In this document: positions 7,407-61,694 of the stretch, in pieces
Position numbering within the stretch: position 1 is the stretch's first letter
How the letters are laid out: every line of letters begins with the position of its first letter
From: Podarcis gaigeae
Taxonomy: Eukaryota
Direction: 5' to 3' (one strand)
DNA length: 64,000 nucleotides
Assembly (NCBI GenBank): GCA_964106915.2
Contig: OZ066914.1
The notes under the pieces: model-generated
Databases searched by the model: none
The model's input: only the letters and a program-made list of their open reading frames with translations
What the model was told of the DNA's origin: nothing
Position numbers and translations under genes: made by a program

Positions 7407-7439
<33 letters not shown>
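7407..7439. repeat. (CT)n microsatellite
   Basis: Seen directly. Confidence 0.95.
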
Positions 7440-7442
<3 letters not shown>

Positions 7443-26615: not shown

Positions 26616-26751
26616 CAGTGTTTTCCAAACTTGGATCTCCAGCTATTTTTGGACTACAACTCCCATCATGCCTAGCTAGCAAGACCAGTGGTCAGGGATA
26701 ATGGAAATTGTAGTCCAAAAGCAGCTGGAGACCGAAGTTTGGGAAACATTG
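26616..26751 (-). mobile_element. 136-bp palindromic hAT MITE inside an older hairpin element (~26540-26822)
   Basis: TIR CAGTGTTTTCCAAACTT/AAGTTTGGGAAACATTG; perfect 8-bp TSD ATCTAACC (26608-26615 and 26752-26759). Confidence 0.95.
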
Positions 26752-35771: not shown

Positions 35772-35914
35772 GAGCAGGATAGGTCAGTTGGCTAGAGTGT
35801 TGTGCTGACAAGAGCAACAGTTCAATCCCCGTAAGGGACAGCTGCATATTCCTGTGTGGCAGAGGGCTGGACTAGATGATCCTCAAGGTCCTTTCCAACT
35901 CTACAGTTCTATGA
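35772..35914 (+). mobile_element. SINE: tRNA-Ile-like head + CR1-type tail
   Basis: Head tcagttggctagagtgttgtgctgacaa...gttcaatccccgtaagggaca resembles tRNA-Ile; tail ggactagatgatcctcaaggtcctttccaactctacagttctatga. Confidence 0.75.
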
Positions 35915-36064
35915 AAAACCAATTGAGAAATCTCAGCGGCCGGTTCTTGCTTTTATTCAGATACATTAGACCAGGGGTGGGGAAACTTTTTGTCTCAGTG
36001 GGTCTGACAGGTTCTCCACCCATGCACTACTCAATAGTGCCTTAGGATGCAATCCTAACCCTCA

Positions 36065-36150
36065 TGCAATCCTAACCCCCCACAGACATGGGAGTAAGCC
36101 CCATTGAATTCAGCAGGAATCATGAGCAGTCATGATACAGTTTGCACTGT
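36065..36150. repeat. Old ~80-bp hairpin MITE-like family copy, left end duplicated
   Basis: gggagtaagccccattgaattcagcagg core; atgcaatcctaaccc occurs twice (36047-36080). Confidence 0.6.
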
Positions 36151-37278
36151 AAGTAACTTTGTTTCATGGTGCTAAGGAACATTGCACAATATTTTTATAC
36201 AATCAAAGCTGCATAATGCATTCATCTCTCAATGCATCCTCTCACTTAACATTTTGGGCTCTGTTACATCAGCTGTGAAGTCTTGCACGTTTAAATAGGA
36301 CGACAAAGAAGCAACAACTGAGAAAGTTTTGGCACCTCCTGGGCTAACAACAAATGAGGCCATGTACACAACTTGTCTAGCTACAAAACACCCATGTGCT
36401 ATGCCACTATTTTTAAAAGTTAGCTAAGGAAATGCCCTTCATTGACTGGGTAAGTGGTGTTTTGCAAAGTAAAATGTGGCCTAAATTAACGTAGGGAAGA
36501 CTAATGTGACACAATAATAAAATAAAATAAAATAAAATAATAAACAATGGCACTCTCTCTCTCTCTTTATTAATCCCCACTAATATGAAGCCCTCTTTAA
36601 CCACTGAAAGTATCCCCAACCTAGTTTTGTCCACATCATTTGAAAGGCAGCACATCCAAAACCAGGAAGTCAATGCTCTTGCATAGTGCTTATTCTAGCC
36701 TAAAACACTATATATTGCTGCAGCCTTCAATGCCATGCATGCCACCACAAGCAAATACTGACCATGATTGTTCTCATTAAGTTTATAAGAATCCAGCCCA
36801 AGGAGATGCGGCCACAATTAATTAATTTACAAGTTTAACTAGAACTGTGGTTAGCACACAATCACTACAGCTTTCTTCCTTCAACGATTAGCCATGATTT
36901 ATCACCTTCTAGAGGAGTCCTAACAGTCATTACTGGATTTTTAATCTCCAAAGTGGAATATAGCACTGGAAAAAGTCATTTGCGTGTCAATAACTGTTGC
37001 TATCCTACAATATTTAAAGCATGCCGAAGACTTGTGTATTTAGAAAAGAGGTGTCAGCTGGTAGCCTGTTGGCTAACTCCAGACAGTAGCCAAATGGCAT
37101 TTGGCCTAACGAAGGCTAGCCATACATCATAGTTATGCAAACCAAGTTGTGCATGGGGCTCTGTGCTGCTGCATGCAGTCTGAGCGAGCCCAGCCTTGTT
37201 CCTCATTTCCTGGAGTAGGAAAATGTAGCCTAAGCACTGGTTCGGATGCAACAGATTTGGCTACCAACACATTAACTA

Positions 37279-37520
37279 CAGTGGTACCTTGGGTTAAGTA
37301 CTTAATTCATTCCGGAGGTCTGTTCTTAACCTGGAACTGTTCTTAACCTGAAGCAACACTTTAGCTAATTGGGCCTCCTGCTGATACTGAGCCGCCGGAG
37401 CACAAATTCTGTTCTCATCCTGAAGCACAGTTCTTAACCTGAAGCACTATTTCTGGGTTAGCGGAGTCTGTAACCTGAAGCATATGTAACCTGAAGTGTA
37501 TGTAACCCGAGGTACCACTG
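37279..37520 (+). mobile_element. pogo/Tigger-like MITE, copy 2
   Basis: Same TIRs, TA flanks and internal sequence as 6324-6563. Confidence 0.9.
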
Positions 37521-37873
37521 TATATAAAAGATGAAGGCAACTTGGGGAAAACCTAGAAACAGACTATTTAGGGCAAATGATACCAGAAATACAGTTTCCT
37601 CCATTCTTTCCTCCCAGGAGAAAAATACAAGGCAAGGGTTAAGTTGCCCTTCTCACCTTGCTGGCCCTTCTACTGCAGATTGCAGTCTCCATTGCTGCAT
37701 TTTGGATAGTTTTTTTTGTTTTTTTAAAAAAGAAACAAGAACTACAGTGACGAGAGTCACACGCGGAGTAAACTCCAAGAGGGCCTTTTATCCTCTCCTA
37801 CACCAGTGGATCAGCTCTTACATAGGTGAGCCCTGGCACGGTGGAAATATACTGAGTCCTAGAACCATCTGTC

Positions 37874-38238
37874 GGGACGCAGGTGGCACTGTGGGTTAAA
37901 GCCTCAGCGCCTAGGACTTGCCGATCGAAAGGTCGGCGGTTCGAATCCCTGCGGCGGGGTGCGCTCCCGCTGCTCGGTCCCAGCGCCTGCCAACCTAGCA
38001 GTTCGAAAGCACCTCCGGGTGCAAGTAGATAAATAGGGACCGCTTACCAGCGGGAAGGTAAACGGCGTTTCCGTGTGCGGCTCTGGCTCGCCAGAGCAGC
38101 GATGTCACGCTGGCCACGTGACCCGGAAGTGTCTCCGGACAGCGCTGGCCCCTGGCCTCTTAAGTGAGATGGGCGCACAACCCCAGAGTCTGTCAAGACT
38201 GGCCCGTACGGGCAGGGGTACCTTTACCTTTACCTTTT
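37874..38238 (+). mobile_element. Full-length, young Sauria SINE
   Basis: GGGACGCAGGTGGCACTGTGG head, B box GGTTCGAATCC, (ACCTTT)n tail, perfect 14-bp TSD TAGAACCATCTGTC (37860-37873 and 38239-38252), CpG-rich. Confidence 0.97.
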
Positions 38239-38296
38239 TAGAACCATCTGTCAATGGTGACTGGACTAAGGAAGGGAGAAAATAAATGCTATAAAA

Positions 38297-38618
38297 CAGC
38301 CACGTCCAACAGATAGATCGTTATCCACCAGTAGATCACTGGACATATTTGGTAGATCACTGCCCCCACCCCCAAAGAAGCTCAACAACCATAGCTGTAA
38401 ACTTTCAGATTTGAAAATAAGGGATCAGCAGCCTCACCTGTCCCAGGGACAGTCTATGGGATATCTAACAATCCGGGATAGCAGCGGGAAATGGCGCTCA
38501 ACAACTTTTACTTGAACCCCAAAAAAATGGCCCCCGTCCTTCCTCAAAAAAAAGCTCAACAACTTTGAGGGGGTAGATCACTGCCAGATCGCAGTCTCTT
38601 GGGAGTTGGCCACCCCTG
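38297..38618. mobile_element. hAT MITE with repeated TAGATC subterminal motifs
   Basis: Ends CAGCCACGTCCAAC / GTTGGCCACCCCTG; 8-bp TSD ctataaaa/ctatagaa. Confidence 0.75.
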
Positions 38619-39914
38619 CTATAGAACAATTCAAGTAACAAACTGTTCTTTATCCAGCAAAAGTTCAACATTTGAAGTGCATAACTACACAACATGTAGT
38701 TTTGTTGTGGGTTTTGTCTTTTGTGTGGGTGGTGTTTTCTTTAGCCTTGCCTTGCCCCCTTGTTAGTTTGCTTCCCGTAAGAAACACACCAAGGGACTTG
38801 TTTTTAGAAAACGTATTACTCCACACCCATAAAGTATCAAATTTAAAGAGACACCGGATATGTTACTTTCTGTCTGGTCTTCTCAGGAAAAGGTTACTCA
38901 GAGCCTCTTTAGACCAGTTAATTAAAAACCACCCAAGAAGAAAGGGGAAGAAAATATTAAAGCATGTAAGACAGACCACCCGGTTCAATCATTGTTTTTC
39001 TGGTGGGGGTCATTGTTAATGTCCCCCCATGGCTCAGATGCCCAGCTCATATCCACTGGAACCATGTGTTCAGTACTGTGGGCCCAATCTCATGATACTC
39101 CATTCCATCTGAGATCAGACAGGCTCCCTCCAAGTTCCTGGTGAAGACTTTATTATTATTTCCACGGGAAATTTAAGTGAGACTTTTTGATTTTACTATT
39201 AAATGTAACTGCCTTTAGGCTGTATCCCTGTTGTGCATTGCTTAGTAACTTTGATGTTACGCAGTATATAAATTATTAAAATAAATAAAAATACATGTGT
39301 GATGAAGCAAGATGGATACTGGATAATAGAGATGGCTCGCTGCTTCATATGCAATAAATTATGTTGTTTTAAAATCAGGAGTTGACTATTGATTAATAAT
39401 TTCCAAGAACTTACGTACGTAATGGGTTTATTACATCCAACACTATGTTTAAAGGTCCAATTAATTAATACCAATGTGTATTGATTTTTGCAACAGGATG
39501 CTCCTGGTGTCTGCAGTCTAGAGAAAGGCAGTAGGCTTTTATTAACAGTTGACCTTTTAACTGATCTTAATCATGTGATTGCCAATGTGGGATGCTTACT
39601 AGGGTTGGCATACAGAACATAATGTTTTCCAAGAATTGCAGGCTTACTTTTTCAATCTTGTGATTAAGCACATTAACAAGCAGTAAGAATTAAAGGTTTG
39701 TATGCCAGTTTAACAAGCCGTTTCTCTTAACTGCTGTGAGATAAGAAAGTAATATAAATACAAGTCGTTTGTGTTTACTCAGTAAACAGGTGCTGCTTGC
39801 TCCTTGCTAAGCAGATGGTGAATTCAAGAATACTGCAGTTAATTAACTTAACTCTCCGTTACGGGGGGGGGGGGGGGGAGCAACTAGAATCCTGCCTCAA
39901 CTTCCACAGCACAA

Positions 39915-39915
<1 letters not shown>

Positions 39916-39947
<32 letters not shown>
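39916..39947. repeat. (CA)n microsatellite (a poly-G run lies nearby at about 39863-39878)
   Basis: Seen directly. Confidence 0.95.
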
Positions 39948-39949
<2 letters not shown>

Positions 39950-40100
39950 GATACATAAAAGTGTTTTCATAACCATCACACCCATTTATTGCCAATATTT
40001 AGGCAAGAAATTCTAACTCGGCCACCAAAAAGTGCAATTCTATGCAAGTCTCCTCAGAAGTAGGACACATTGAATTCAATGAACTTACTCCCAGGTGTAG

Positions 40101-40195
40101 CAGGGGTACCCAATCCGGCCCCCTCCAGCTGCTGTGAACTACATCCCCCCTGACCATTGTCAGGACTGATGGGAGCTGTAGTTCACAATGTCTGG
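40101..40195. mobile_element. Truncated palindromic hAT MITE inside an old hairpin element (40033-40210)
   Basis: caggggtaccc...ccctccagctgctgtgaactaca...tgtagttcacaatgtctgg. Confidence 0.65.
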
Positions 40196-41023
40196 TCTAT
40201 AGCCTTGCAAGCTGTAAAGTGCTGCATTGCCTTATATTATTAAATGGCAATTCTACACAGTTGTGTCAATAATTCCCTTACTGATCACAGTTCAGACTGC
40301 CAGGATTGGCATCAGGAGGAGAGTTCTGGTGTTCCTTTGCTACACGCTGCTTCCTGTTTGAATGCTACAGTCACTCGATTCCAGTGACCCGGCATTATGC
40401 TGATGAGCTCAACTTTACATCTCATGAATGAACCAATAATTTGCATTCTAACCCTGTGATTTCCTATTGTGTTACCCAACAGACTGGGATTATATCTAAT
40501 GATATTGTGGTTTTATATTGTCAGCTTCCCTTTCTAATGCAACATTTAAATTGCTTAGCTAACATTGCTAGAATATGTGTTGGGCGGGCGGACAAGTTGG
40601 TAACTGTGGGAAAATGGATACTAGAAACAACATGAAAAGACAGTGTCAGTTTTTGTGGTAACCTGTCAGGTGTTTTAAGCACCTTGATGCCACAAACATC
40701 AGAAAGATTCTGGAAGACGGATTTGCTTAGTGTGAGAGCACAGCCAATACTTTGTCAGATGCAAAATGTTGTGACAGCTGAGTATAAGTAAATATTATGC
40801 CCTTTGTTTTTCTGATAGAAAAGCTCTTTAAAAGGGGGTTTTGTTTGTTTGTTTTTACTTTAAAATTTCATATCCATTTACACACCTGGAAAACAGAGAG
40901 AGAAAATACTGAGAGAGAAAATACTAAGAGTAAAAGAAAGATACACTGAACATGAAATAAAAATATTCTTACTATCCAGACAAGGAGACAAGGGTATACT
41001 AAAATGCAAGCAACTAGATCACA

Positions 41024-41277
41024 TGTGGTGGCTTCCAGTTTGTGGGATACTCTCTCTAAGGAAGTTCGCCTGGTGCCTTCAGTATATATATTTTAGGCGC
41101 CAGGCAAAAATGTTCCTCTTCAACCAGACCTTGGGCTAATTAATATCCTACAGCCTTTTAAATGTATCTGTCAGAAGGCGGGGTCATTGTACTGTTGCTT
41201 TGGTTTAATTATTGTGTTTTATGCTGTGTACTGCCCTGGGAACTCTTGCTGAGTGGCGGTATATAAGTCTAATTAAC
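41024..41277 (+). mobile_element. Older L2-clade LINE 3' end
   Basis: gtggtggcttccagtttgtgggatactctc (VVAPxLWNxLP-like), ttttaggcgccaggcaaaa, terminal ctgccctg...ggcggtatataa. Confidence 0.65.
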
Positions 41278-43115
41278 CACCACCACCACCAACATCATCT
41301 AGCTTTCCTCCCCCTCGTGGAACCCAGCCACTAGCAACCAGGCTCAGCAACAAACTTCCATGCATTGCGTCAAGAGTTCTAAGTGCACAGCAAATGCAGA
41401 TGTGCAGCTAAATCTCTGTCTGTATCATAATGCTCATCTGGTCTCCATCTAACCACTGGAATTTATCTTTTTATCCAGATAAACAGAGATGCACATGCAG
41501 GCCATTATGCAGGAGTGGCTGGTAGGGCAGCCCAGCATTTCTTCCCAGGCTCCCCAACACCATCCATCACTGTTAGTTACTGAGCAGGAGAGGGGCAGGG
41601 CAACAGGGAGCTAAGTGCAGTACAGATGTAGCAGCGGTGGCACTGTGTCTCTGCAGCTGCAACTGTGCCTTGCCTCCTCCCTTCAGTATGCAGAAGCAGC
41701 AGTGCACAGTGCTGAGAAACCAGGGAAGCAGTGCCAGCAACTACTGCCATTATGCACTGCATGTGTTTAACTACAATCCTTAAGATTAGGGCTCAGCTAT
41801 AAAATGAGACATTTTAGCTAAGTGGACATCAATTTTAACTAATCATCTTATGTAGTTACCTAACATTACAGGATGTATTGTTAGCAGTGTCACGTAAATG
41901 ATGCAGATGGAACCCAGAGAGAAAAGAAATCCTGGTAAAACTTTACTAAGAGAACTGAACAAAGAGTATAATTTAAGGGGGGGAAACAGGTTTTGTCTTT
42001 TTTATTTCATGCCTTATACACTGCAGGGAGACATCCAACCAACCATTCAGATGAAAACTCCCTCAGAACCACACAGCCTATCAGAGCCCGTGTTACCTCA
42101 GCAAAGATCACAATGATCTTCTTGGTTGTTAAGCAACACTCCACCACCACCACCACCCCTTGATTAGCTGACTTACTAACAACAGAATTAACCCTTAGGT
42201 TACAAACCAAATTATCTCTACTGTTGCAATTCCCACATGTATCATACTGAAGTGAAGAGAATGTAAATTCAGCAGAGAACCTGGTTGTATTAATGTTTCC
42301 ACAGTGTTAGCCCATCTACATTGTGTACATTCTGATGTTCTTGTTAGGTTCAGCTATATGGGCACCTAAAATTTAATCTATGCAATAAAAAGTGCAGGAA
42401 GAGGTCACCTAGAATGCTTCAACCTTGCTGCAAGAACCTTCGGCTTTCTCTTGATTTACCAATCAAGTGATTGATTTATCAATCCTAAAGTTGTATTAAA
42501 ATTAGTATTAGCATTTAGCATTGCATGAGACGTGCCAACACACTGCAATCCAAAAAGCATATGGAGGGAATTTGCACAATTAGGCAAGCTGCCAAGTACT
42601 TAGAGTTCTACTTTATTATCATCATTACCATGAGACCCCTTGGCTTTAAAAAGGGGCTTAAATATAAGGACTAATAGAAGTCATTTTAAAATGCCAGGTA
42701 AAGCCAGGAATGTTTAAATTCCAACAACGACAGGTCATTTTGTTATATTCTGAAACCACAGAAGCCAAGCTGGCCAAAGGGCAAAAGGAGGCATTATCCA
42801 TGTTACCTTCTGTGTCCTGCTCTGGTGAAACATTTGTAGACATTACAATGAAAGTTTACATAACCTGATTTTGGCAGCATTTCTTCAGAGCTCTTTCAAA
42901 TCTCTAGCTATGGGCAAACAATCTCTGATGTACATACAAACGTTCCTTCCTTGCCCACAAGGACTGCCCCAATTACTTGAATGGAAGTAGCAGGTATGCA
43001 GGCACATTATTTTGCGGTCAAAGATTTTGTCCTTCCACAAATAGTCCATCTGCACTGAGTGCACACTGGGCTCTGGACTGGATCAATTAGCTTTTTCCTT
43101 AGGGTTGTGATCAGG

Positions 43116-43142
43116 GTGTGTGTGTGTGTGTGTGTGTGTGTG
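43116..43142. repeat. (GT)n microsatellite
   Basis: Seen directly. Confidence 0.9.
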
Positions 43143-43191
43143 CTATTTCTTTAATTAATCTTCATTGCTAGTAAATTAAATGCAGGACTTT

Positions 43192-43229
<38 letters not shown>

Positions 43230-43253
43230 GGTTTTGGTATATATATGCAGGTT

Positions 43254-43295
43254 TTGAAGATGACGAGTGAGACCTCGTCGAAACGTCGCCTAGAC
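43254..43295 (+). ncRNA. Minimal type I hammerhead ribozyme-like core (Penelope-associated), 5' strand of stem I apparently lost
   Basis: (U)UGAAGA-U-[GACGAG ugagac CUCGUC]-GAAAC-GUC: conserved boxes, a 6-bp stem II and a GUC cleavage triplet. Confidence 0.65.
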
Positions 43296-43351
43296 ACCCC
43301 AACTTTTACACGGGAAGACACCCGAGGACACCAAAACCTGCATTCCTGTAC

Positions 43352-43491
43352 NNNNNNNNNNNNNNNNNNNNNNNNNNNNNNNNNNNNNNNNNNNNNNNNN
43401 NNNNNNNNNNNNNNNNNNNNNNNNNNNNNNNNNNNNNNNNNNNNNNNNNNNNNNNNNNNNNNNNNNNNNNNNNNNNNNNNNNNNNNNNNNN
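43352..43491. other. Assembly gap (N run)
   Basis: 140 consecutive n. Confidence 1.
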
Positions 43492-43501
43492 CTAGCAATG
43501 A

Positions 43502-43539
<38 letters not shown>

Positions 43540-43567
43540 AGTCCTGCATTTAATTTACTAGCAATGA

Positions 43568-43601
<34 letters not shown>

Positions 43602-44868
43602 GCGCGCTTCATATAATGGCCACTCATCCATGTTAAATGACTCTCACAGGAGGCTGGGTTAGAAGTACACAATATCAGAACAAAACAAAACAATCTTAAT
43701 GCCTGCTCCAGGAAGCGAAAGTTGCAAGCCTGTGGAGACTGGTGGTACCGGACCTTGAACCATTATTGAGAATAATAGATTGAACTTCCCTGACCTTCTG
43801 TAAAGCAGCAGAATATTATCTATACCTTTATAGCCTCCCTGTGCTCTCTTCCCCTCTATGTTATGCATTCATCTAAACAGTGTGTTCTGGATCATTACCT
43901 TTCTTTTTCAGTCTCCCAGAAACTCATCTGTTACACTAGAAGTAGTTTGCCGTTTCAGAGCTCAGTTATTTAAAAACCAAAGCACATTCACTGATTGTGT
44001 ATTTATTATTATTATTATTATTAAGCAAACACAAAGGAGCTTGTGTCTTACGCCACTATTTTTCTCAATCCATTTCCCTCACACATCAACTATTGAAACA
44101 GGAGTCACCACTATACTGGTCAGCAGGGAACGTATGCCAAAGGCATTTTAAGAGGTATGTCTATGTAGCCCAGTGCTTCTCAAACTGTGGGTCACAGTCC
44201 ACAGATGGCCTTCAGTGTGTTCCTGGGCGGTCATACAATGAGGAGCTTTTTAACCCCCTTTTCACTGGGCTATCAACTCACTATTACAATGGTAAAACCC
44301 CTTTAAGAACCAGGTTTACTCTCTCACACCATCCCTCCCCTTTATATGTCATGCTTAAATTCTATTCAAATACATACTAGCCTATATTCACATGAAAAAC
44401 AAAACATAAAGCATAAAACATAAGCTAGTACAGAGTTAACTATCGATGCAATAGTCTTTCAATTTCTGTTGTAAAGGATGAAAATAGGCCTGGAAAGGTG
44501 TAGGTGGTTAAATTACAAGTGGAACATACTTCAAAAATATTCAAAAGCATTGGTGACTTTCTTTCCTGCTATTGATTCCAGTCTATTTCTAAAGCCAGGA
44601 ACCTCACTCAACAGCAATGGAGTCTCCTTTTAAAAAGAAGTTGGGTCCAAGATAATTTCCCACTGTGCCGAAGAGCGATACTGTATTTATGTCATTGTGG
44701 ATAATTAAAATGGCAGCTCTGACTGGAACGCAGAATGTCGTAACGCCAACAAAACATTCTAAACCTCTCAGCAGTGTATATATGAACATACATGTGTGCT
44801 GGCTGCGAACATGTGAGTCCAGGTACACACTAGTAACATTTGGGAGCATCTGTAGACACCAATGTGCT

Positions 44869-45226
44869 AAGGTAAAGGTAAAGGTTAAATCCAGTCAAAG
44901 GCAACTATGGGGCGTGGTGCTCATCTCACTTTTCAGGCCGAGGGAGCTGGCAGACAGCTTTCCGGGTCATGTGGCCAGCATGACTAAACCGCTTCTGGCA
45001 CAATGGAACACTGTGACGGAAGCCAGAGAGCATGGAAACACTGTTTACCTTCCCGCCGCAGCAGTATCTATTTATCTACTTGCACTAGCATGCTTTCAAA
45101 CTGTTAGGTTGGCAGGAGCTGGGACAAAGCAACGGGAGCTCACCCTGTCACGGTGATTCGAACCGTCAACCTTCTGATTGGCAAGCCCAAGAGGCTCAGT
45201 GGTTTAGACCACAGTGCCACCCATGT
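44869..45226 (-). mobile_element. Sauria SINE, near full length, older
   Basis: (AAAGGT)n tail at left; gattcgaacc B box and ccacagtgccaccc head on the reverse strand. Confidence 0.9.
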
Positions 45227-46656
45227 TGAGTAGATGCTCTACTACTGAGCTGAAGCCTTTACAGTGCTGATTAGAATGTTCCTGCTACTCCTCCCCACCA
45301 GAAAGTACACCACCAAGGGCTTCCTGAATCCTCTCACTCATCCTCGTCACCAGATTTTTCCACCTGCATTTTTTGGGACTCAGCGTCATGTCCTCTCTGG
45401 ATGCAGCAAATGTTCCAAGTGGCCCCTGCAGCTGAGTTCTCCAGAATCAACATGTTAGGTGGTGGTATCATCACCAAGGAAAGATCACAATACTCGTCCA
45501 ATGCAGAGACCTTTTGTTAAAAGGTTGAATGAATAGTAGAAGAGTAGACATGGCAACTGAAATTTCATGAACTGTGGGTTTCAGCTAATGAGTTTGACTA
45601 CACAACCTCTAACACACACAGAAGTTCAGAGAATACAAATGGAATGAATACATGCTCTACCCTTACATGTCAGAGCAAAGGCCCCTGAAGTCCTCAGCCA
45701 GTGTTCCTTGTGAAGACTTCCTCAGAAAAGAAGGAACAAGGAACAATGAGCCAACCCTTTTGGAACACAGACAAAGATGAGCTGAATAGTTGATAATGCT
45801 AACAACTCATTTAAGGGACATCAGAAGAATATCCTCCCCCCCCCCCCGCCTCCACACACACAGCAGCAGCAGCAGCTGAAGGGAAATTGCATTCTGGAAT
45901 GGTCCTCCTCTTCTCTCTTTTTGCAAGGCAACTGCTTATCAAAACTGAAAAGCAATTAATAATGTATTACTTCTGCTCATAGTCAGATTTGAAAATTATT
46001 TTTCTCTACAAGCTTAGCAGGGCCAGGGCCAGAAAACAGCATATTGCTATTATCAAGGGCACCTGTAGATGTTTTGCCTTGTCTAGTAAAAAGATTGCTT
46101 TTCAGAGTCTTTCATGTTCTGAATGAAACCTTCTGACCAGTTATACTTCGCATGCATTTGCTTTTAAATTTCACTGAGCAGCTATCTATAACTGAAGGAT
46201 TCTTCTTCTTTAATGATGTCTTATCATTGATGTAATCTGCTTTTTCCTTGTAAAGCTTTTGAGTTCATCTCCTTTATTTTGAATTTCTCCCCATCAAATT
46301 ACTTTCCCCTTTAGCCTTTCATGATAAGAATACAGGAAGCAAATGAAAACAAACTTAAACAAAAAAAGCCACAAGCCAGGAATGTTTTATCAAGTAAGTA
46401 TCTGCTGGCTGAACAAAGTGAGTGGATTCCCCCCTCCCCAACTTAATTTGACTGTCAACACTGAGTTTGGTGAAAGGATGTTTTTGGTTTGTATGTGTTT
46501 GCAGCCCAATAACTCTGCTGAACCACTGAGAAATCAAAATGAAATATAGTACATATGTTCAAGGGCAGAATTCTCACATTTCAGATCTGAATGCCAGCTC
46601 AACCACCCTCTCCTTTTTAAAATGGGAAAATTCAGTATACCACACAGTACAATATA

Positions 46657-46833
46657 CAGTGGTACCACTGGTTGCGAACAGGATCTGTCCCAAAGCCCCG
46701 TTCGCAACCTGAAAGGAACGCAACCCGCGTCTGCACACGCGCAAGCTGCAAAACCCAGAAGTAACCCTTTCTGGTACTTCCGGGACGCAACCTGAAAAGA
46801 CGTAACCAGGGTCACATATACCACTACTACAGT
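46657..46833 (+). mobile_element. pogo/Tigger-like MITE, second family, right end degenerate
   Basis: TA|CAGTGGTACC, repeated cgcaacc motifs, related to 60899-61151. Confidence 0.75.
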
Positions 46834-48226: not shown

Positions 48227-48378
48227 AAAGTTGGTTAAAATGTGAGGTGCATTTAATAAATGGAAATTTGTGTAATTTTCTTTATAGAATAATTTTTTGT
48301 AATTATTCTTTATAAAGTTGGTTAAAATGTGAGATGCATTTAAATAAAGGGAAATTTGTGCAATTTTCTTTATAGAAC
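48227..48378. repeat. Imperfect tandem duplication, period about 87 bp
   Basis: aaagttggttaaaatgtgag...aaatttgtg.aattttctttatagaa starts at 48227 and again at 48314. Confidence 0.9.
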
Positions 48379-49977: not shown

Positions 49978-50137
49978 AAAGGTAGAGGGACCCCTGACCA
50001 TTAGGTCCAGTCGTGACCGACTCTGGGGTTGCGGTGCTCATCTTGCTTTATTGGCCGAGGAAGCCGGCGTACAGCTTCCGGGTCATGTGGCCAGCATGAC
50101 TAAGCCGCTTCTGGCAAACCAGAGCAGCGCACGGAAA
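49978..50137 (-). mobile_element. Sauria SINE, 5'-truncated, inside an old hairpin element
   Basis: Reverse complement closely matches 22550-22710. Confidence 0.9.
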
Positions 50138-51574
50138 AAAGTCATGCTAAATTCAAGGGGGCTTATTCACTTGTAAGTGGAGTTATGAGTGAATCCTAAT
50201 TCATTAGGGTTCATGCAGCATGTAAAATACACTCAGTTCAAGGCATAAAGGAGATTTGCTGCTTGATCTAAGAGGTTCACATTTATTCTAGTAGCAGAAC
50301 AGGGCCTTTGGTGCACACACACAACTTCATAAATTATCAACCACATAACACCAATAAATATCCATTTCCCAAAAGGAAACTAGACGCAAGTATAATTTAC
50401 TCTACATCCAGAATTCATTACCAACAAAGACTACATCAGTTGGTGGCATACTATATTTCAGGAACTCAGAAGAAAACTATTAATTTCTAAAAGTATTCCA
50501 GTGTCTTTTCAGTAACATATTAATACCGGCTTTAAAATGTCATGAAATTATTATGTAGTATCTTGGAACTTTACCAAAATTCAGAAAGAAAAACACCTAA
50601 AGGATTTCACATCTGGTTTCCCTTCTGAAAATACTGGTGGCATTTCTTTTAAGCTTGCTTTCTGCACACCAGCTCTAAGTTACAATAAAATGTCCTATCT
50701 GGATAAGCACGGAGGTGGGGGGGGGGAGTATATTTACACTGCTGCAGTCTTCTCAATCTTTTTTGCAACAGTAGACAATGTAAAAGACCCAAACATGACA
50801 TTAATACAAAAGGCTATTTTAAGAATCATTTTTCTCCCCCTATTACAGTGAAGAACAAAACCCCAAGCTTTCCAACATCACACTGAAAGCTATAATTACC
50901 CAATTCTGTGTGAAAATGAAATGATAACATTGTATTTTATGCAAGATGAAGCCATTGAGAAATGCAAAATGTGCCTTTCATAAATATGATGAGTGAATAC
51001 ATGACTGGAATGCAAAAAATTCTCGTTAGCTCTCTAGCAAGAAAATAAGGAAAATCATGGTTTCCTCCGTTTAGTGTACAAAAAACAACCTCTCAGTAAT
51101 TTTACACTGAAAAATATTTAGCTTCCCCAGATCTGGTGCTTGCTCTCCTTTCTACAACATGCAAGCCTAAACACCAGCTTGTTGACAAGGACTGACTGAT
51201 GCCTTTTCACAGAAAGCAGCCCACATGGAAAATGTGCATTTTTGGAAAATCAGTGGAGTGCACATTGTAAGGATGGCTTATCAGAACATGGGCTATAGCA
51301 ATAGGCGAGTGTTCAACACAACATAGCAGAGCACTGAGGGGGTTAACCAAATATAATATTTTCGCTGATTCAGATCTGATCTGTCCTGTACCTGACTTGG
51401 CATTATGAATATGTTGCTGTTTTAAACTGCTTTTTTTATATTTATCACTGTTGTGATAGATTGGGGCAGGCAAGGTGGAATAGAGAAGTTTAGAACAGGT
51501 TGGAAAGGCGAAGGAAAGAGTAAGAAAAAGGGGGAAAGGGAAACAGGCAGGAAAATGTTTCTGGTGGTGATGGT

Positions 51575-51719
51575 ACACGAGGCGGATTTTGCGACGCGTG
51601 CAGGTGAGCGGTTTTCGGCATCCTCCCCTAAATAAGCTCAAAACTTTTTTCTTAAATTTGAGTCCCCAAAGAAGTGGGCGACTTATACATGGGGGCGTCT
51701 TATACACAGAAAAGTACGG
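51575..51719. mobile_element. One end of a Tc1/mariner-type DNA transposon
   Basis: CpG-rich patch ending gggggcgtcttatacacagaaaagtacgg|TA, with a duplicated cttataca subterminal motif. Confidence 0.7.
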
Positions 51720-53644
51720 TACGTCGTAGCAGATAGAAATGAGGCTAGGTAGGGAGAGCTTTAGGCAGGACAAGGAAATATGCAGTGACCAGGGGAGAAC
51801 TGCAGTGCTGAGAGAGCTACTGATCAGCAGTGGTGAAAAGGAGGCAATGAGCAGGGGATAGGGGAGCAAACGAGAAGGGAAGACTGATGGTCACTGGGAC
51901 CAGGAGGTCTGGTGGCGGCAGTGCCAAATTCTAATATATTGTAACCAAGAGTGTTGTGTGGCCAATATTTCACCCCACTCTTTGTCCCATGGTGTTTAGG
52001 CATACCTCTCAGTGTGCCTGGCATGCTGTTATTTGGGAACATGTTTAAAGCATGTCTGGGACACAATACAGCAAACAAAGCCTGAAGCAAGCAAACAATA
52101 AATATGACTTCCAAGAGAGAGATAACATTGGAAAGGAAAGCCACAACTCTATGCCACCCAGTATTTTACCCCTATCTATGATCTACTCAATGCTCAACAG
52201 GATATTTGTTTATTATTATTTTTTAACCCTCAAGTTTGTAGTGGCAGGGAAGGGAGCCCAGTGAAACAGAACTGGAGTTTTGTGAATAAAAATCATAAGG
52301 TGTCCACCATCATTTTATCCATTTTTATCTTGACGCCAGAAGCCAAAGGTTCTTTGCTTCCACAGTTATTCAAGAAAAGTATTGATATCCCATGTACTAA
52401 AAACTGAAAACTCTTTATGTAGCTTTATAAAGAAAGTGAAAGTAGCACAAATGTTCAGTAGTGTCCTAATATGTAGTTCTCAAAGATGCTATTAGCCTAT
52501 ACAGTACTTTAAATAAAAAGGAACCCATATATGTCCACACAAATACATACACAGTCAAAAGTAGCCTCTTCTGAACCAAAGCCCTTTTTGCGGATAGGTG
52601 TTTTTTTTAGATTTGTCAATCAGCTATACAAAACAGTTACTGTAGGATAGTAACCATGCATAGTTAACCAACCACTTAATCTGTTTTTTAAAAGCTGTTT
52701 TCCTTGCAAAATGGTTTTCTGAAAGTTGTAAAAGAATTTATTCACCAAGAAGCCAGGCAACCTGGAAATGGGTCAGAAAGGAATGTTTCCAGTATATACA
52801 CATTTCCTTCTTTGCATAGGTTAATATTTCACCATACTATAATGCAGTCTTGTGATGCTGTGGTATTTAAAAATTACTTTCCACTACAGTCTCTCTCAAA
52901 CACTTGCTGAATGTTTATTTTTAATATTTTCACATAATCCTTCAAATCTTGCTCAGGTGACGTCACAAGTACTGCTTATGTTAGGATTACTCTTGTAAGG
53001 AAGCTTGGTATAAAATATACAGTGATGAAGGTTCAACTATTAAGAGCCACTAATTGTTTCCCAGCTAAGTGCAAAGCCCTCCCCAACCATTCATAAGTGC
53101 AGTAATATGCAAAACTGGACCCTAAATCAATAGTGCTTTTACTAAAACACAGCCTCAAGAGAAAGCTGATGAAATTGCTGTGTGCCAAACAGGCGATTTG
53201 CCAACTGACTAATCATACAATGGTTAAGGCATGCAAGAAGAGGTTTAGTATTCAGATCCAAAGAAAACACATGGGTATTTGGCAGACCCAGATGGAAAAG
53301 CAAAATGTATACATGTGTGGAGGCTGCCACCTTGGCTAACCCATGTCTCGCAGAATGAAGGACCTTTAGACATAAAATGAGTGTGGTTCTCTAAAACTGG
53401 GTATTAGAAGATGTCTGCCATGTCCCATTAAACTTGCCATGTCCCATTATATACTGCTTTTTGCCTTTCTTTCATCCAGTCATCACATTCTCAAAATTTA
53501 TTGATTCAATATTTTTTTAAAAGGTGAATTTATTTAGGATGGAACAAATCCTCTGCTGTTCAAGTTTAACTTGGTTTAGAACAAACAGCCAGTTATGCAT
53601 ACAAGTACTCATAGGATCATAGAAACAGAGTTGGAAAGGACTCT

Positions 53645-53892
53645 GGAGCCAGGGTGGTGTAGTGGTTAAGAACAGTAGTCTCGTAATCTGGTGAACCAGG
53701 TTCGATTTCCCGCTTCTCCACATGTAGCTGCTAGGTAACCTTGGGCTAGTCACACTTCTCTGAAGTCTCTCAGCCTCAATTACCTCACAGAATGTTTGTT
53801 GCGGGGGAGGAAGGAAAAGGAGATTGTTAGCCTCTTTGAGACTCCTTAGGTTAGTGATAAAGCGGGATATCAAATCCAAATTCTTCTTCTTC
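53645..53892 (+). mobile_element. Squam3-like tRNA SINE, copy 2, abutting a reverse CR1-type tail fragment (53610-53644)
   Basis: High similarity to 14325-14566; B box GGTTCGATTTCC; (CTT)n end. Confidence 0.85.
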
Positions 53893-54956
53893 CGAGGGTA
53901 GCATGTGGCTGCAGTTAGCCCACACTAAATGAACATTCCCAAAAGATGAAATGAAGTTCACCCTGAACATCTGAATTCCATAACAATTCTGATTTCAAGA
54001 GGTTGCCACTTCCATGATGGGTGCCAATCTGAATCCTACACCAGGGGCTGTTGCTAACTGACCATGAAGCCTAATTTGCTTACTTGCGAGGTTAGACTGT
54101 GTCTGGTGTTTATTAAGCCTTCGTTCCAATTTGTTTGTGGAGAGGTTATACGACAAGTATTCATCCTGATTTGCTAGTGTGATGTTTATCTTCCCACTAA
54201 TCATTTGTTCATCCTGCACTTCTCAGTGCACTTCCCTGTTACTTTTCTAACCACAAGTCCAAAGGGTTCTCAATAACTGGATTGCCACAATTAATAAAAA
54301 AAAATCAGCTGGGTGGATAACCAAGTGGTTCTTGTCTATTTCAAACTTCCAATTAAGATGAAAGAAGGAGTCCCAACTCCCATTAAAAGCCCTGTTTGCT
54401 AAATTTTATGCAAATAAAAACCACTCAACCACTGGGGGATTCAGTCAATGATTTAAATTGCTGCAGAATCAGTTGCTGGACTCCTTTTTTTTTTTTACCC
54501 GCTTTGCTTAAAAGGATGAGACCTAATTACTGTAAAAGAACAGTCTGCTATATTGCTATATGCCTGTGAATAGGCACAGCTGCTAGGAAACCGCTGATTT
54601 GGATATAGGAGGCAGTCTCTGTATTGATCACTAGCTGCTACCAATTACACCCATTGAAACCATGAACAGCCATCAGTGCCATTTTTCAGGCACATCAGCC
54701 CACTCTTGCACAACATTATCTGTTCTTCAGTGAACCGGTAGCTTGATTTCCAATAAAACGTCCTAATATTATCCAAGCAAATAATATTTCTGGATACTTT
54801 TCCCCATCAGTACAGAAATGATTAGCTTGGCAGCTAAACATATACCACCATGATTAGATGGTTCATTTCACCACTTAGTTATAACATATTAGGTCCATCC
54901 TATTACACCAGCCACACTGGGGACACCGCAGTGCAATTCCTTTCCCAAAACAGATA

Positions 54957-55163
54957 CAGTGGTACCTCGGGTTAAGTACTTAATTCGTTCCGGACGTCTG
55001 TTCTTAACCTGAAACTGTTCTTAACCTGAAGCACCACTTTAGCTAATGGGGCCTCCTGCTGCCGTCGCACCGCCGGAGCACGATTTCTGTTCTTATCCTG
55101 AAGCACTATTTCTGGGTTAGTGGAGTCTGTAAGCTGAAGCGTATGTAACTCGAGGTACCACTG
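54957..55163 (+). mobile_element. pogo/Tigger-like MITE, copy 3, internally deleted
   Basis: TIRs CAGTGGTACCTCG/CGAGGTACCACTG, TA flanks. Confidence 0.9.
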
Positions 55164-57548
55164 TAGAGAGAAGTCATATTGCACTACATCAACGAGACCA
55201 CACCAGTATCAACCTGACCTGAAACTGATGCAACTCTCTTACAATGCATGGGGGAGTTCTCATCTTATCCAGCTGCATGAGAAGCAGCTACAATTGTAGC
55301 AAGTCTCACTTCACTCGTATAATGTAAGAAACATGCCTAATGAGGGTATGCCAAATTAGTAATGGTATTCAATTCTACTAGAAATAGGTATGTTACATGG
55401 CTGTGACAATTAGGATGCCCAACATTTACAGGAACACTATCTGATTTATTCTAAGATATACTATTCTATCCTAAGGTAACTTTATGAAGTTCTCAGAAGA
55501 GAAGTTTCCTGTCCCCTTTTACCTCGACCAGGCCCCTGAGCCCCATCTGGCATTAAAAAGGCAACATTGGGTTGGATACAATGGGCCAGATTCAGTTCTC
55601 CTGGAGAAGTAAATGTATGATTTTTGTTGGTCAGAGTTGATTGTGTGGCACATACCCCAGTTCCTTATTTTGATATAAATGGGCTATTATTGGAATGGGA
55701 GCACTGTGCTTGAAGGGTTTTGTTCTGTCAATAGATCACTTCCTGTTTGTTTGGTGCATAGACTATTCCCTTCTCAGAACGTACATGGAGCCTTCAGCAA
55801 CCTCATGGGTCTTTGCAGACCCTACAGAAGGATGGGCTTGCAGTGCTGGGAGTGCCTGGCCCTATAATAAGACTAGCCTGAAAAATGAGGGTAGAACAAA
55901 AGCATTTTACATCAAGCTGGATGTTGCAAATTTTAGTATATTTTATGCTAGTATGATTGTTTTCTCAAAATGTATACTCTTTTGCAATTATTTTAAACTT
56001 TCCAATCTTTACTTGAATAGTGTTCCAGTATGCAGCATCTGTTGAGTCTTTCGCTCAGAAGTTATTTTAGAAAACTGCAAAATTGCGTAAGAAAAGTTGG
56101 TGTCGTTTTTGTAATACCAGCCATGCTTAATTTCTATATTGAGCAGAAGTGAATCTAAACTAAGTACTTAGAAAGGGGGAGAAGGGCTTCTAGAGCCCAA
56201 TTACATGTGGTTACACAACATAGAAAAGAAAAGTCACTCTATGTGTGCCCAGAGGCCCTCCCTATTATTTCAGACTCAAGTTTCAGGGATTGAAAATGCT
56301 TTCTGCGGCTAAGTCTTGGCGATTTGGGTTTTAAATTAATCCTGAATGCCCAGCTATTTTAAATGAACACTTTCTGTTACCTCAACAATTCCTTAATTGT
56401 ACCTGGAATAAAAAAAACCTAAGAATAATTTAGGGGCTACGATCAAAATTTCGCAAATCCTGAAAATTGTGCATATTTTGTGTTCAGACATATCTGAAGC
56501 TAATGTGGCATACAAATACAGCGAAGCCCAGCTTGCTTGAATAGCAGTTAATATGCAATGATATCGCCTCGGGGTACTGTTAACACAGACCTCTCACTCT
56601 CTCACCCTTTACAAAGAGCTATTAATAGTTACTAAAGGATTTTTTGTTTTGCTTTTTAAACAGTATCACATTAGAAAAAGCTAGCGAGACAGGGCTGCAG
56701 AATTCAGAAGCTCATCTAGCATCTTAGAAAGAAAATGGGACTGGGCACCGGCATCCAGGTTGCAAGGAAATTGGTTTCTGCTCCTTTCTGACTCCTAGAA
56801 AATCTGTCTAACTCCCAGATTTTGCACCTCTGCCAGTGGATATTCCAAATTAACATATTTGGCAAGCATGAACTACTTCAGATCATTCTGCTTCTAAATA
56901 GATAACACTTCACCACTATAAAACCAAGCCCTTCTGGAGCAAGCACAACAAGCGATGAATCCAGTTTTCCTCCCAACTTTCAGCTACTAGAAGGACTGAG
57001 ACTATACACAAACATTAATCTTTCAATCAGTACTTTTTCACAACAATTAAGCACCTAAAACAATATACAAGATTACTATTGGACAACATTCATCTCAAAG
57101 ATTTCAGAGAAATGCAAGTAACATAATCCATAGGCAAAATACAAGGACTCCACATCACTTCTCTTAATTGTTTTGTAGCATGTGCATTTCTTTGAACTCT
57201 TGGCTATTTTTTAAGATGAACTTAGCATTTATGTTCACCTACGAAAACTTTAAAAGTTATGATACTTTGAAGCACCAAACAGAAGAACCAGAAATAGGTC
57301 TTTCATCTGATGTAGGGGATTTTTGCCCTTGCCAGCTTCTAGAACCATTTGGGCATTCTTGCTGCAAATATAATTATATTTATCACACACACATCAATAG
57401 CTATCATTTGTATTTTTTTAAAAAAAGAAAAATGTGTGCAGTAAAATAAAAGACACATTCTAACATCCTGTGTAGTTAGGCCCCATAGGGCGGGTGCTAA
57501 TCTGAAAAACACTTGAAAATAATCAGAATACACTAATCTCAAAGGTAT

Positions 57549-57841
57549 GAGCATCTCCACCTCCATCGTTCTGCCTGGACACTGAGGTCCAGTGTCGAGG
57601 GCCTTCTGGCGGTTCCCTCGCTGCAAGAAGCCAAGTTACAGGGAACCAGGCAGAGGGCCTTCTTGGTTGTGGCGCCCACCCTGTGGAATGCCCTCCCACC
57701 AGATGTCAAAGAGAAAAATAACTACCAAACTTTTAGAAGACATCAGAAGGCAGCCCTGTTTAGGGAAGCTTTTAATTTTAGTGTTTCGTTGGAAGCCGCC
57801 CAGAGTGGCTGGGGAAATCCAGCCAGATGGGTGGGGTATAA

Positions 57842-57888
<47 letters not shown>

Positions 57889-57894
57889 CATTAT
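57549..57894 (+). mobile_element. L2-clade LINE 3' end with (TTA)n tail
   Basis: Peptide VVAPTLWNALPPDVKEKNNYQTFRRHQKAALFREAF; inverted sister of 4783-5184. Confidence 0.85.
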
Positions 57895-58332
57895 TTGTGA
57901 CACACTGCTCTCTAATGCTCAGTTAATCAAATGGAAAGCAACTTAAGGTTACTTTAAAACTTACTTATACTGTGACCCTTTCAGATATACTTCAGTAAAT
58001 GCCATTATTGTTTTCTATGGCCTCACTCAGTAAGATGTGAACATGGGAATGGATTTGTAAACAATGTATGTTTTTTTTAATTGCACACTGCCAGTCACAG
58101 AGCTCTCAACTCCGATAGCAACACAACATAATCCTTAGTTATAGGATTGTTGAGACTCATTAGCTCCTAACACCTGCATTAGTCAGGCATAGAAAAGATG
58201 TGCTCACCTAAAGGAAAAACTAAAAGCAGCAACTCAGAGACAAGATGAAGATAATTATTTCCGGGTGTGCAAAGTAAGCAAATAATCCTTAATTTATAGA
58301 AAGCAATGCACTTTTTTCTGCTGAGATACAAA

Positions 58333-58496
58333 ATCTCTGTGGCACACTGGGTTAATGCATCTGGCTGTTAACCAGAAGGTTTGTGGTTCGAGCCCACCCA
58401 GGGATGGCTGTGGGCAGGAATCCTGCATTGTAGGGGGTTGGACTGGAAGCCCCTCAGGGTCCCTTCCAACTCTACAATTCTAGGATTCTCTGATTG
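58333..58496 (+). mobile_element. SINE: full-length tRNA-Asn(GTT)-derived head (58333-58406) + CR1-type tail
   Basis: 61/74 nt ungapped identity to the remembered vertebrate tRNA-Asn-GTT, anticodon loop CTGTTAA; tail ggggttggactgg...gggtcccttccaactctacaattctaggattctctgatt. Confidence 0.85.
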
Positions 58497-60898
58497 CTGA
58501 CACGATATGACAAACAAGCAAAGGTGATTCTTTCCCTTTTTCATATATGTCCAAGTCAACAAGAGTGTCTTAATGAAATCTGTGGATCACAATCAAAGAG
58601 CACGGATTTTTTTTAAAAAATTGTTTTCAACAGTTGGTCCCCAGTTTCCTTCCCCACTAGAGACTTACAGATATCCAAATATGAGTACCCCTTCAGAATG
58701 TTTGCAATATATACTTCTCTGAATTCAATTTAAGGTCTCAAAGTTATCAGAAGGTAGGGCAGTTTAATATAAGATGCTCTGGGAGCCTTTTCAGCTGAAG
58801 AATGGGGGTAAAAATCTTTGAAATAAGTCAACAAATACATTAATGCATGGGGTTTTCCCCATTTGGTCCTCAAAGGAGCCCTGTAAAGCACACTAAACAG
58901 AGAAACCTCAGTGTCACCAAGAGAGGATGGTGACTGAACAAGGATGCAAAGCCAAGTCTGTAATAACGTCCCACTTCATAATAATGTTGAGAAGACAAAC
59001 AAATTCATTACTGCTTCTTAATAGCTATTTCAGCCCATCAAGTTTGGCCCGTCTCACACACATTTCAACTTCACATTTTATTTTTCCTATAATTTCTACA
59101 GCAAATAAATACTTAGCATTTGCAATATGCTTCAGAGTATTTAAAGGACCTCACATTAAACACATCAGTAATTCATATTTTCCTTTATTCCTACTTTTTA
59201 ACTGCATCTGTAATTGTGATTCACAGGAATACTTATCTCAATAATGAGTGAAACACTGTCATCTTGTATGGTTTATTCTTTCTTTTTTACAGTTAGATTG
59301 TTAAGGGCTAGCAGCACTATCTTATAGGCGCTTCCTCAGCAGTCCGGTAAAGTGTTCACAGAATGAAAATATGTATCACACACATATTTTTACTATTAAT
59401 AATATTAATAATTAAATAATGTCAAAGACTTCACATGTCAAGAAGGCCAAGTTTGCACAGTGACCTTTCGCTTCAAAAAAGTTGCAAATTGCTTCAGTTG
59501 GGCCTGTATTGTTTGAAACGCTAACACATAGTTGGCCCACATACAGCCAAAATTGTGTTACCGTTGGAGCTGCCCCATGGCTAGCCAGTTAGCCTTCTAC
59601 AAGACAGAGGTGGAACAGAGTAGCAAGAGAATCATTACCAGGCCCAGAGCTCTTTTTGTGCCAGGTTCACTTGGGATTCCCAGCACGACAAGAAATTTAA
59701 GCTCTCAACCTTGCTTCTCAGGCAAGGCCCACTCGGCATGCCGGCTCAGAGTTAGGGAATATCACTTGGGGTTACCTGAGTGAATTCAAGTTGATGAGGG
59801 GAAACCCGTGCTATGAATGCATTCCAAATCACATTTTGATCTGAGAAGAACCAAGAGACTAGGGATGTCATCCAGAAGGGCAACAAGATAAACACTCCCC
59901 CAGCACTGCTTCCCCAGTCAAGTAAGCAATCCACTCTGCAGCTGCTCTGAAGCACAGAAAGCAATGTCAAAAGATCTGATGACTGGTTTCAGCATTACAA
60001 CTTGTTTGGCTGCAAGAGCAAATTTATTTCTACCTTAAAATGGATGGACAGCACTTACAAAGTGATTGTGTTTGTTGTAATTTCCATAACCATGAAAAGC
60101 TTCATCCACTAATTTATGAAGTCTACACAGATTAATTCATGCATATTACACTGTTGTTGGAGGCACAAAAGCAGGGCAGAACCATTTTCTTCCAGCTAGT
60201 TGACAAATCATGGTATTTTCCTCTCTCCCACTGACAACTGTGCTAAGAGGAGAACATCTGGGTCAAAGTAGGAATGAAGAGAGGCACCTTTACATAGAGC
60301 ATTCATGATGCCACCGTGGGCTGTGCTTAGAACCTTATGAACACTCGTTTTAACTGTGCATCAGTTGCGGGGCTTCAGAGGAAATCTTCAGACCTTTCTC
60401 ATGATACATTAGCATGTATTTTGATTTTAATGTTGTTATTAAACATGATACCAGGATGGACATCACAGATGAAGTCAAAAACAGAACCACGAAGAGCAAT
60501 TACAAGTCCTATAAAAAGGCATGCTAAATTTCTATCAGTTATGAGCTATTTGCTTTGAAAATCTGGTTTGTCACATCTGACAATCCCACAGTAATTTTTG
60601 CTGACCCACTGTCCCATAACTCTGAGAAGCCTGGAACTAAAAATGCAATTGTGCCTGGCAAATACAAATCCCCAAGCAAAGTATAATCATCTTAAGTAAA
60701 CTACTGTCAGGCAAAAGTCCTACACATCAAACAGTTCCCACAATGTCTTGTGCTGTTATCTAGCAGAAAAGTCCCACAATGGCTCCATATTCACGCACAT
60801 TAGGAGACCACACAGCTTCTATTTACTTCCACAGGTGATCATTTGGCGAGAAACGTATGCAGTCAATCCTTTGGGTTACATTACTTGCGTATAAAATA

Positions 60899-61151
60899 CA
60901 GTGGACGCTCTGGTTGCGAATGTGATCCATGTGGGATGCACGTTTGCAACCCACAGCGTTCGCAACCTGCAGCGGCACGTCTGTGCATGTGCGGGTTGAG
61001 ATTCTGCGCATGCGCAAAGCGTGATTTAGCGCTTCTGCGCATGCGCAACCACCGAAACCTGGAAGTAACCCATTCCGGTACTTCCGGGTTTCGGCGGTCC
61101 GTAACCCAAAAAAAACGCAACCTGAAGCGTCTGTAACGTGAGGTAAGACTG
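60899..61151 (+). mobile_element. pogo/Tigger-like MITE, second family
   Basis: TA|CAGTGGACGCTC ... GAGGTAAGACTG|TA, with cgcaacc repeats. Confidence 0.8.
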
Positions 61152-61572
61152 TACTAAATTGAAACTTATGCTTAATGAACTTTGAAACAAGGATATTATC
61201 CAGAGCTGAAAGTTATTTTAAATAAATTATATTTACAAGCTTTCTGTTTGGACAATTTTGACATTAAATGCTGAAAAGGAACTAGGTGCAGCAAGACCAT
61301 CTCGGCTGTGAATCCTGGAAGACCTGCTCCCTGCCTTGCTTGTGAGGGCAGGGCCTGACTGACTCCAGCTACAAAAGCTTAGGCTGCTGAACAAACACTT
61401 GAGCTGGGGGACTGTTGGGGAGGTTGTTGTTGCTGTTTGGTTTTTTTGTGTCTTTGTTTTAGATCTTGATGCAATTTATAGAATTCTCTCCCCATGGAGG
61501 TGCAACAACTTTTACCTTTTGAAGCTTCCAACCACAGGTGGAAATGTATGCATTTACTTAGCCTTTATTTAT

Positions 61573-61694
61573 ATAGAATTGTAGAGTTGGAAGGGACCAC
61601 AAGGGCCCTGTGATGCAGGAATCTTTTACCCAATGTGGGCTCAAACCCACAACTCTCAAGTTAAGTCTCATTTTCTACCAACTGAACTGTCCCA
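61573..61694 (-). mobile_element. SINE: tRNA-Lys-like head + CR1-type tail with an internal deletion
   Basis: Minus strand agttcagttggtagaaaatgagacttaacttgagagttgtgggtttgagcccacattggg resembles tRNA-Lys-CTT, then attcctgcat...ggtcccttccaactctacaattctat. Confidence 0.7.

Follow-up and report, generated by a model that had tools for sequence, protein, structure and literature searches.

A 64,000-nt stretch of the genome of the lizard Podarcis gaigeae (contig OZ066914.1 of assembly GCA_964106915.2, one strand, hereafter the window) carries three short elements in which unlike 5' parts related to transfer RNA (tRNA), here called heads, precede what appears to be one and the same 3' part, the tail. 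How did one tail come to stand behind three different tRNAs? The first-pass annotation of this locus had answered that a fixed tail module of CR1 type, that is, the end of a long interspersed element (LINE), captured tRNAs repeatedly and so founded sibling families of short interspersed elements (SINEs). All three elements were found where it had placed them, with bounds refined by alignment to class consensuses, and they are copies of three genome-wide tRNA-headed SINE families that share one CR1 tail.

Three tRNA-headed families with a common tail

The class consensuses are read by ARAGORN as tRNA-Lys(CTT), tRNA-Ile(GAT) and tRNA-Asn(GTT), and each of the three families has a tRNA-derived head with A and B boxes. 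For comparison we used 65 tRNA calls of 22 types from the same genome, one of which proved to be a copy of the Lys SINE and was excluded. The heads match cognate genomic tRNA genes at 65/73 (Lys), 67/74 (Ile) and 66/74 (Asn) positions, about half of the differences falling at CpG, while identity between the heads of different families reaches only 46-54 of 74. They thus come from different tRNAs, as had been claimed, and do not cluster into one consensus. The window copies agree with this: against 44 distinct genomic tRNAs of 22 types, the head of the Ile copy scores best with Ile(AAT) (62, next best 33), that of the Asn copy with Asn(GTT) (100, next 37) and that of the Lys copy with Lys(CTT) (65, next 47). 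A dense tRNA gene cluster, in which many Asn, Ile and Lys genes were found, lies at G000:C25 ~11.49-11.69 Mb and 12.03-12.05 Mb.

Each head carries a change that is fixed in its family and absent from the tRNA genes, namely A35G in Ile (69/74 copies), A43G in Asn (45/50) and C7A in Lys (59/80). The Ile head derives from Ile(AAT), and it is A35G that turns its anticodon into GAT; the Ile tRNA genes sampled read AAT (7) or TAT (2), none GAT. All heads stop at the discriminator base, with no CCA added. They are joined to the tail by linkers of 4 nt in Lys (AAAG, exact in 48/80 copies), 7 nt in Ile (GCTGCAT, exact in 47/75) and 12 nt in Asn (GCTGTGGGCAGG, exact in 19/51), and after each linker the first tail base is the same in the three families. 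These are the linkers that the first reading of the window had named; they turn out to be the family consensus, so that the head-tail junctions are multi-copy and fixed and not single-copy events. At ~145-155 nt the elements have no body, only the 4-12 nt of linker lying between head and tail, and no run of four T, looked for as an internal terminator of RNA polymerase III (Pol III), occurs in any of the three consensuses. Among loci chosen by head motif alone (the first 30 per motif), the tail is present in 27/30, 27/30 and 28/30 (82/90 in total), compared with 3/2000 random windows. The fixed linkers and the family-fixed head changes show amplification from masters; repeated one-off chimeras are excluded, since these changes are fixed within each class.

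Identity of the tail with the end of a co-resident CR1 LINE

The tail of ~70 nt is the 3' untranslated region (UTR) of an older CR1 subfamily, from which the SINE tail consensuses differ by 0-2 bases. The consensus of this older CR1, built from 12 long copies, has an open frame that ends in a TAG stop 5 nt before the tail. When loci were chosen by tail motif, 25/30 were not SINEs, and most tail copies run upstream into the LINE. The tail is therefore, as proposed, a CR1 LINE 3' end, given the ORF2 stop 5 nt upstream and the reverse-transcriptase homologues of the frame's end; the idea of a special, fixed SINE module has to be dropped, since what the SINEs carry is a plain CR1 3' UTR.

With the end of the open reading frame (ORF) of a younger CR1 subfamily as query, 5782 of 8000 scored proteins match at E<=1e-20. 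Many of these are named reverse transcriptase and belong to birds and turtles, lizard homologues are found as well, and the end of the LINE protein shares 96% identity with a Podarcis protein. Among the homologues no match named CR1 was seen, and Pfam found no domain in the ORF end. CR1 is the dominant transposable element of birds (PMC8665684), and a hairpin followed by an ATTCTRTG repeat is a CR1 hallmark (PMC5729268); the CR1 label therefore follows from the bird homologues together with these 3' features. The same two predicted hairpins occur in all five tail consensuses, and roughly one tail in two is followed by ATTCTRTG-type repeats (44/87, 37/67 and 29/50). The features expected of a CR1-mobilised SINE are thus present, that is, a tail common to a co-resident CR1, the hairpin and repeat, and overlapping activity, and the families were likely spread by the CR1 copying enzyme. 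No abrupt halt of the reverse transcriptase was seen at the junction: 5' ends increase smoothly in number toward the 3' end.

The younger CR1 subfamily (6-7 copies, among them L121:3118, L183:932, L193:4418, L228:4951 and L323:2356) is ~3% diverged. It has its own 3' UTR variant with both hairpins kept; no tRNA head was seen on this variant, and it occurs in no SINE class.

Abundance and the search for further heads

Searches with head plus junction returned at least 40 matches per family, spread across many contigs of the 1.51 Gb genome. Exact head motifs occur 810 (Lys, a count that includes a few true tRNA genes), 643 (Ile) and 200 (Asn) times genome-wide, with none for the reversed controls. 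The exact 24-nt tail core has 4983 matches, its reversed control 0, and so the tail is not a chance motif.

Copy numbers were estimated by a census of 80 stretches of 10 kb at chosen round coordinates (800 kb), on which all random-census figures rest. It yielded 45 tail matches (12 Lys, 2 Ile, 0 Asn, 19 CR1 and 12 unassigned), and a second method counted 11 Lys and 3 Ile. Scaled to the genome, this gives ~23,000 Lys (95% interval 12,000-40,000), ~5,700 Ile (1,200-17,000) and fewer than 7,000 Asn copies. Scaling the exact motifs gives ~10,000 Lys (3/37), ~4,200 Ile (4/26) and ~800 Asn (7/27), from small samples of which the Asn one leans to conserved copies. The expectation that each head would be abundant thus holds for Lys and Ile, which run into thousands, but not for Asn, with no copy in 800 kb and ~800 by motif scaling.

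By eye, the first 100 of 2376 matches to a B box plus tail comprise 51 Ile, 43 Lys and 6 Asn; no fourth head class appears among these 100, in a search whose pattern misses decayed B boxes, nor among 361 distinct tail matches. On realignment, the 60/361 that the head model left unclassified proved to be bare tails or else members of the four known classes that are truncated or interrupted. Two local groups of copies were met on the way. Seven exact Asn-head motifs lie within 20 kb on both strands at G000:C2:117164931-117184306, which suggests local duplication of a copy, and at G000:C16 40.83 Mb the Ile copies L056 and L057, identical both in sequence and in flanks, are separated by 5 kb and reflect a recent duplication, segmental or tandem.

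Origin of the three families

The explanation that we favour, with somewhat better than even confidence, is that the three families are independent captures of tRNAs by the CR1 tail. CR1 reverse transcriptase would start on CR1 RNA, copy the ~70-nt UTR and then switch templates to a tRNA lacking the added CCA, beginning at its 3' end; each founder would then have been amplified from its own masters. A run of five T acts as a Pol III stop signal. One such run stands in the CR1 ORF2 consensus at -49..-45 relative to the tail, and a run of at least four T is kept there in 30/41 copies. Because it would end Pol III transcription, viable junctions would be confined to ~45 nt, between this run and the first hairpin, where the product could be read by Pol III to its end and still be recognised by CR1. 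So narrow a window may make independent founders resemble one fixed module. The three junctions do lie within ~10 nt of each other, and truncated CR1 5' ends, which are local-alignment ends and may include some truncated SINEs, fall at -10..+3 in 8/17 cases inside the window of viable junctions, against 8/53 overall; within limits set by the T run, the coincidence of the junctions is therefore unremarkable. The tails point the same way. Changes are private to Ile (T33 in 62/69 and A38 in 61/69 copies) or to Lys (T39 in 62/89), the Asn tail equals that of old CR1 once the 24 copies selected for a similar tail are removed (28 kept), and no derived tail base common to two SINE families was found. 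Recombinants of Lys head and Ile tail were also considered and rejected, as there is no linkage (p=0.73).

Several observations weigh against independent capture, and most of them would suit serial head swapping, in which one tRNA-CR1 SINE came first and gave rise to at least one other family when the CR1 reverse transcriptase left the SINE RNA for another tRNA (a possible order being Lys, Asn, Ile). We regard this as possible, if less probable. Besides the closeness of the junctions, on the face of it the strongest argument for a single origin, Ile and Asn have GGGAC-R-GCTG in common, as C72A (60/73) makes the end of the Ile head Asn-like and GCTG follows in both; the Asn linker holds TGGGCA, as does the end of the Lys head; and a derived A7 is found in both Ile and Lys heads. 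The families are also of equal age, and a precedent exists in the passerine pair TguSINE1 and PittSINE (PMC5729268). The missing shared tail bases would be compatible with swaps that came before the private changes; indeed the CR1 base at position 39 is kept in 16/66 Lys copies compared (19/89 in the wider set), and since these copies persist, with a divergence slightly above that of the others (0.139 vs 0.117), T39 of Lys is late. One further point tells against our reading. Target-site duplications of >=7 nt are found in 3/72, 1/60 and 0/49 copies, no more often than in shuffled pairs; those of CR1 type listed for birds measure 1-5 nt, below this threshold.

What speaks against swapping is that the passerine case was recognised by four derived tail bases common to TguSINE1 and PittSINE (PMC5729268), whereas the lizard tails have only private ones. 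Its other hints can be read otherwise: GCTG is also CR1's own stop-codon sequence (AGCTGAG in 19 and AGCTGTG in 10 copies), the extra bases of the Asn linker may be read as one hairpin arm copied locally, the heads of Ile and Lys are unlike at positions 3-4, and all of these hints are a few bases each and were found post hoc. Of the template-switch proposal with which the locus had first been explained, the mechanism is one already published for passerines (PMC5729268), while a swap of heads between SINEs does not follow from the lizard data. An origin at the DNA level, by a 5'-truncated CR1 that inserted immediately downstream of a tRNA gene or recombined with it and replaced its terminator, would account for heads that end at the discriminator base without CCA, and very short CR1 ends are common. 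It would make the linkers the trailers of tRNA genes, and some cognate trailers do resemble them (a Lys gene with 5/7 and an Ile gene with 6/10), but non-cognate tRNA genes score as well (4/51, 6/50 and 4/51). The linkers were accordingly rejected as pre-tRNA trailers, their similarity not rising above that of non-cognate genes, and no conserved 5' leader was seen; we consider this origin improbable. Least probable by far is that the copies are independently made tRNA-CR1 retrocopies and not self-propagating families. Abundant CR1 3' ends and plentiful tRNA templates speak for it, but the fixed linkers, the fixed non-tRNA head changes, the tail bases private to a family and the four linked diagnostic bases of a young subfamily all contradict it, and the derived changes common within each class refute it.

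Age and activity

Tail divergence is 0.109 in Asn (n=22), 0.091 in Ile (n=18), 0.100 in Lys (n=24) and 0.106 in old CR1 (n=28). With SINEs and CR1 equally diverged (0.09-0.11), the three families and their CR1 partner were therefore amplified together. Contigs assembled from sequencing runs of other organisms join unique flank to element for the Ile copy of the window in 4/4 runs (3' side), for the Asn copy in 3/4 (run X1 has no piece spanning the element) and for the Lys copy in at least 2 of 4, and these insertions thus predate the splits from those organisms. No empty insertion site was found among the contigs of 7 runs, X1 being uninformative at the Asn copy.

Within the Ile family, 4/75 copies (L025, L106, L332 and L343) form a young subfamily marked by the same four linked diagnostic bases; the mean pairwise difference among them is 4.2% (minimum 0.8%), compared with 19.9% for the rest of the Ile copies. 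Their low divergence and different flanks point to recent activity of a putative second master, and these four copies are candidates for polymorphic insertions.

Relation to known SINEs

Both the architecture and the swap mechanism are already known, from passerines, turtles and tuatara. The closest likeness is to TguSINE1 (tRNA-Ile) and PittSINE (tRNA-Asp), in which a tRNA head directly adjoins a CR1 3' end that bears a hairpin and the ATTCTRTG repeat, nearly identical tails carry different heads, and template switching was proposed (PMC5729268). The bird tails share four derived bases, which is evidence for one SINE ancestor, while the lizard tails share none; the lizard has three heads co-amplified in one genome, in copy numbers higher than the ~2000-2500 per bird genome (PMC5729268), and its tail has an extra 5' hairpin, of which none was seen by eye in the PittSINE consensus as printed. 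In the available text on the tortoise Pol III/SINE, a tRNA-Lys head is mobilised by CR1 (PsCR1) (PMC3747384); going by that description it belongs to the turtle lineage and a turtle CR1, whereas the lizard tail is that of a CR1 subfamily of its own genome. The tuatara tuaCR1-SINE1a/b, likened here by the published description as far as accessible, are CR1-mobilised tRNA-like SINEs of a lepidosaur, with more than 10,000 elements (PMC7116210, bioRxiv 10.1101/867069). Crocodilian SINEU, in the accessible account, also gained different small-RNA heads recurrently, which was ascribed to template switching, but these are small nuclear RNA heads, not Pol III tRNA promoters, and Tx1 was the proposed partner (PMC4494074).

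Among tRNA-related SINEs of lacertid lizards, Squam1/Sauria, Squam2 and Squam3 are described in the available parts of PMC10702118, PMC7983390 and PMC13295347 as ~190-350 nt long with a body, in contrast to ~145-155 nt, no body and a CR1 tail here; the LINE partner is Bov-B for Sauria, L2 for Squam3 and CR1 for the present families. That our elements could be variants of Squam2, as had been considered, is unlikely from their length and missing body, Squam2 being compared through the accessible description only (PMC10702118). The accessible portions of PMC11303007, PMC9498476, PMC7397244, PMC5381603 and PMC3531059 mention no such lizard family, and half of the repeats of a lacertid genome are unclassified according to the available part of PMC9498476. 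No tRNA-headed CR1 SINE of squamates was found described in the literature, to which the comparison was confined, entries of Repbase, Dfam and SINEBase lying outside it; within this scope the three families are probably uncatalogued. The full combination, three uncatalogued CR1-mobilised families, the first from squamates, born in a single burst on one CR1 subfamily, with a head swap behind at least one of them, under a terminator-hairpin rule and with a very recently active Ile subfamily, is put forward tentatively, and we think it rather unlikely to hold in every part.

In a given lineage, the birth of a SINE is as a rule seen a single time. With three families of the same age on one CR1 tail, one can ask which tRNAs and which junctions succeed; if they did arise in one burst from one CR1 subfamily, a single genome would offer a natural experiment in SINE birth replicated three times. 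The terminator-plus-hairpin window is a rule open to test. Short insertions in the tens of thousands, of which some are fixed across relatives, and the young subfamily could serve as presence/absence markers in lizard phylogeny. They also bear on annotation, as young copies pass tRNA finders (the Asn copy reaches 53.5 bits in Rfam) and can inflate tRNA counts; Ile SINE copies in particular could be mis-annotated as tRNA-Ile(GAT) genes.

The elements in the window

The three SINE copies, a fourth tail and the repeat that adjoins it are listed below.

Features of the window discussed in the text (position 1 is the first letter of the 64,000-nt stretch)
Feature	Position	Strand	Match	Parts and remarks
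tRNA-Ile-headed CR1 SINE copy	35777-35918	+	124/142 identical to Ile class consensus	head to ~35840; 7-nt linker; CR1 3' UTR from 35848
CR1-type tail, 3'-terminal remnant	53612-53645	-	tail HMM 12.5 bits (weak)	last ~35 nt only
~250-nt unrelated repeat	53644-53891	+		adjoins tail remnant; second copy 14322-14569, 85% identical
tRNA-Asn(GTT)-headed CR1 SINE copy	58333-58493	+	146/157 identical to Asn class consensus (alignment 58337-58493)	head 58333-58406; 12-nt linker; CR1 3' UTR from ~58419
tRNA-Lys(CTT)-headed CR1 SINE copy	61569-61698	-	118/130 identical to Lys class consensus	head 61698 to ~61627; 4-nt linker; tail from 61622

Only the Asn copy is intact enough to be called as a tRNA, by both ARAGORN and Rfam. 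The Ile copy has a small deletion in the anticodon arm, and its tail is recovered by the tail hidden Markov model (HMM) at 35848-35914 with 65 bits. The Lys copy has an internal deletion of ~15 nt in its tail; the missing piece is visible as a loose-end consensus at 61605 in 4/4 sequencing runs of other organisms. A fourth, bare tail had been reported at ~53610. Some tail sequence does exist there, as a weak match, but it is not an intact bare tail, because only the last ~35 nt are left, cut at the 5' side where the ~250-nt repeat adjoins; the remnant is assignable to neither SINE nor LINE. The repeat is presumably a Sauria/Squam1-type SINE.

Elsewhere in the window, a weak tRNA-like match at 23854-23910 on the minus strand (25.4 bits, sub-threshold) has no CR1 tail after it. 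Two copies of an inverted-repeat element resembling a miniature inverted-repeat transposable element lie at 21109-21213 and 26626-26730, with sub-threshold matches to Rfam mir-5408, and elements like it interrupt several tails directly after a CTAG motif (L121, L207, L054 and L374). Finally, ~60861-61424 is a high-copy repeat with tandem-like internal joints in 4/4 runs examined.

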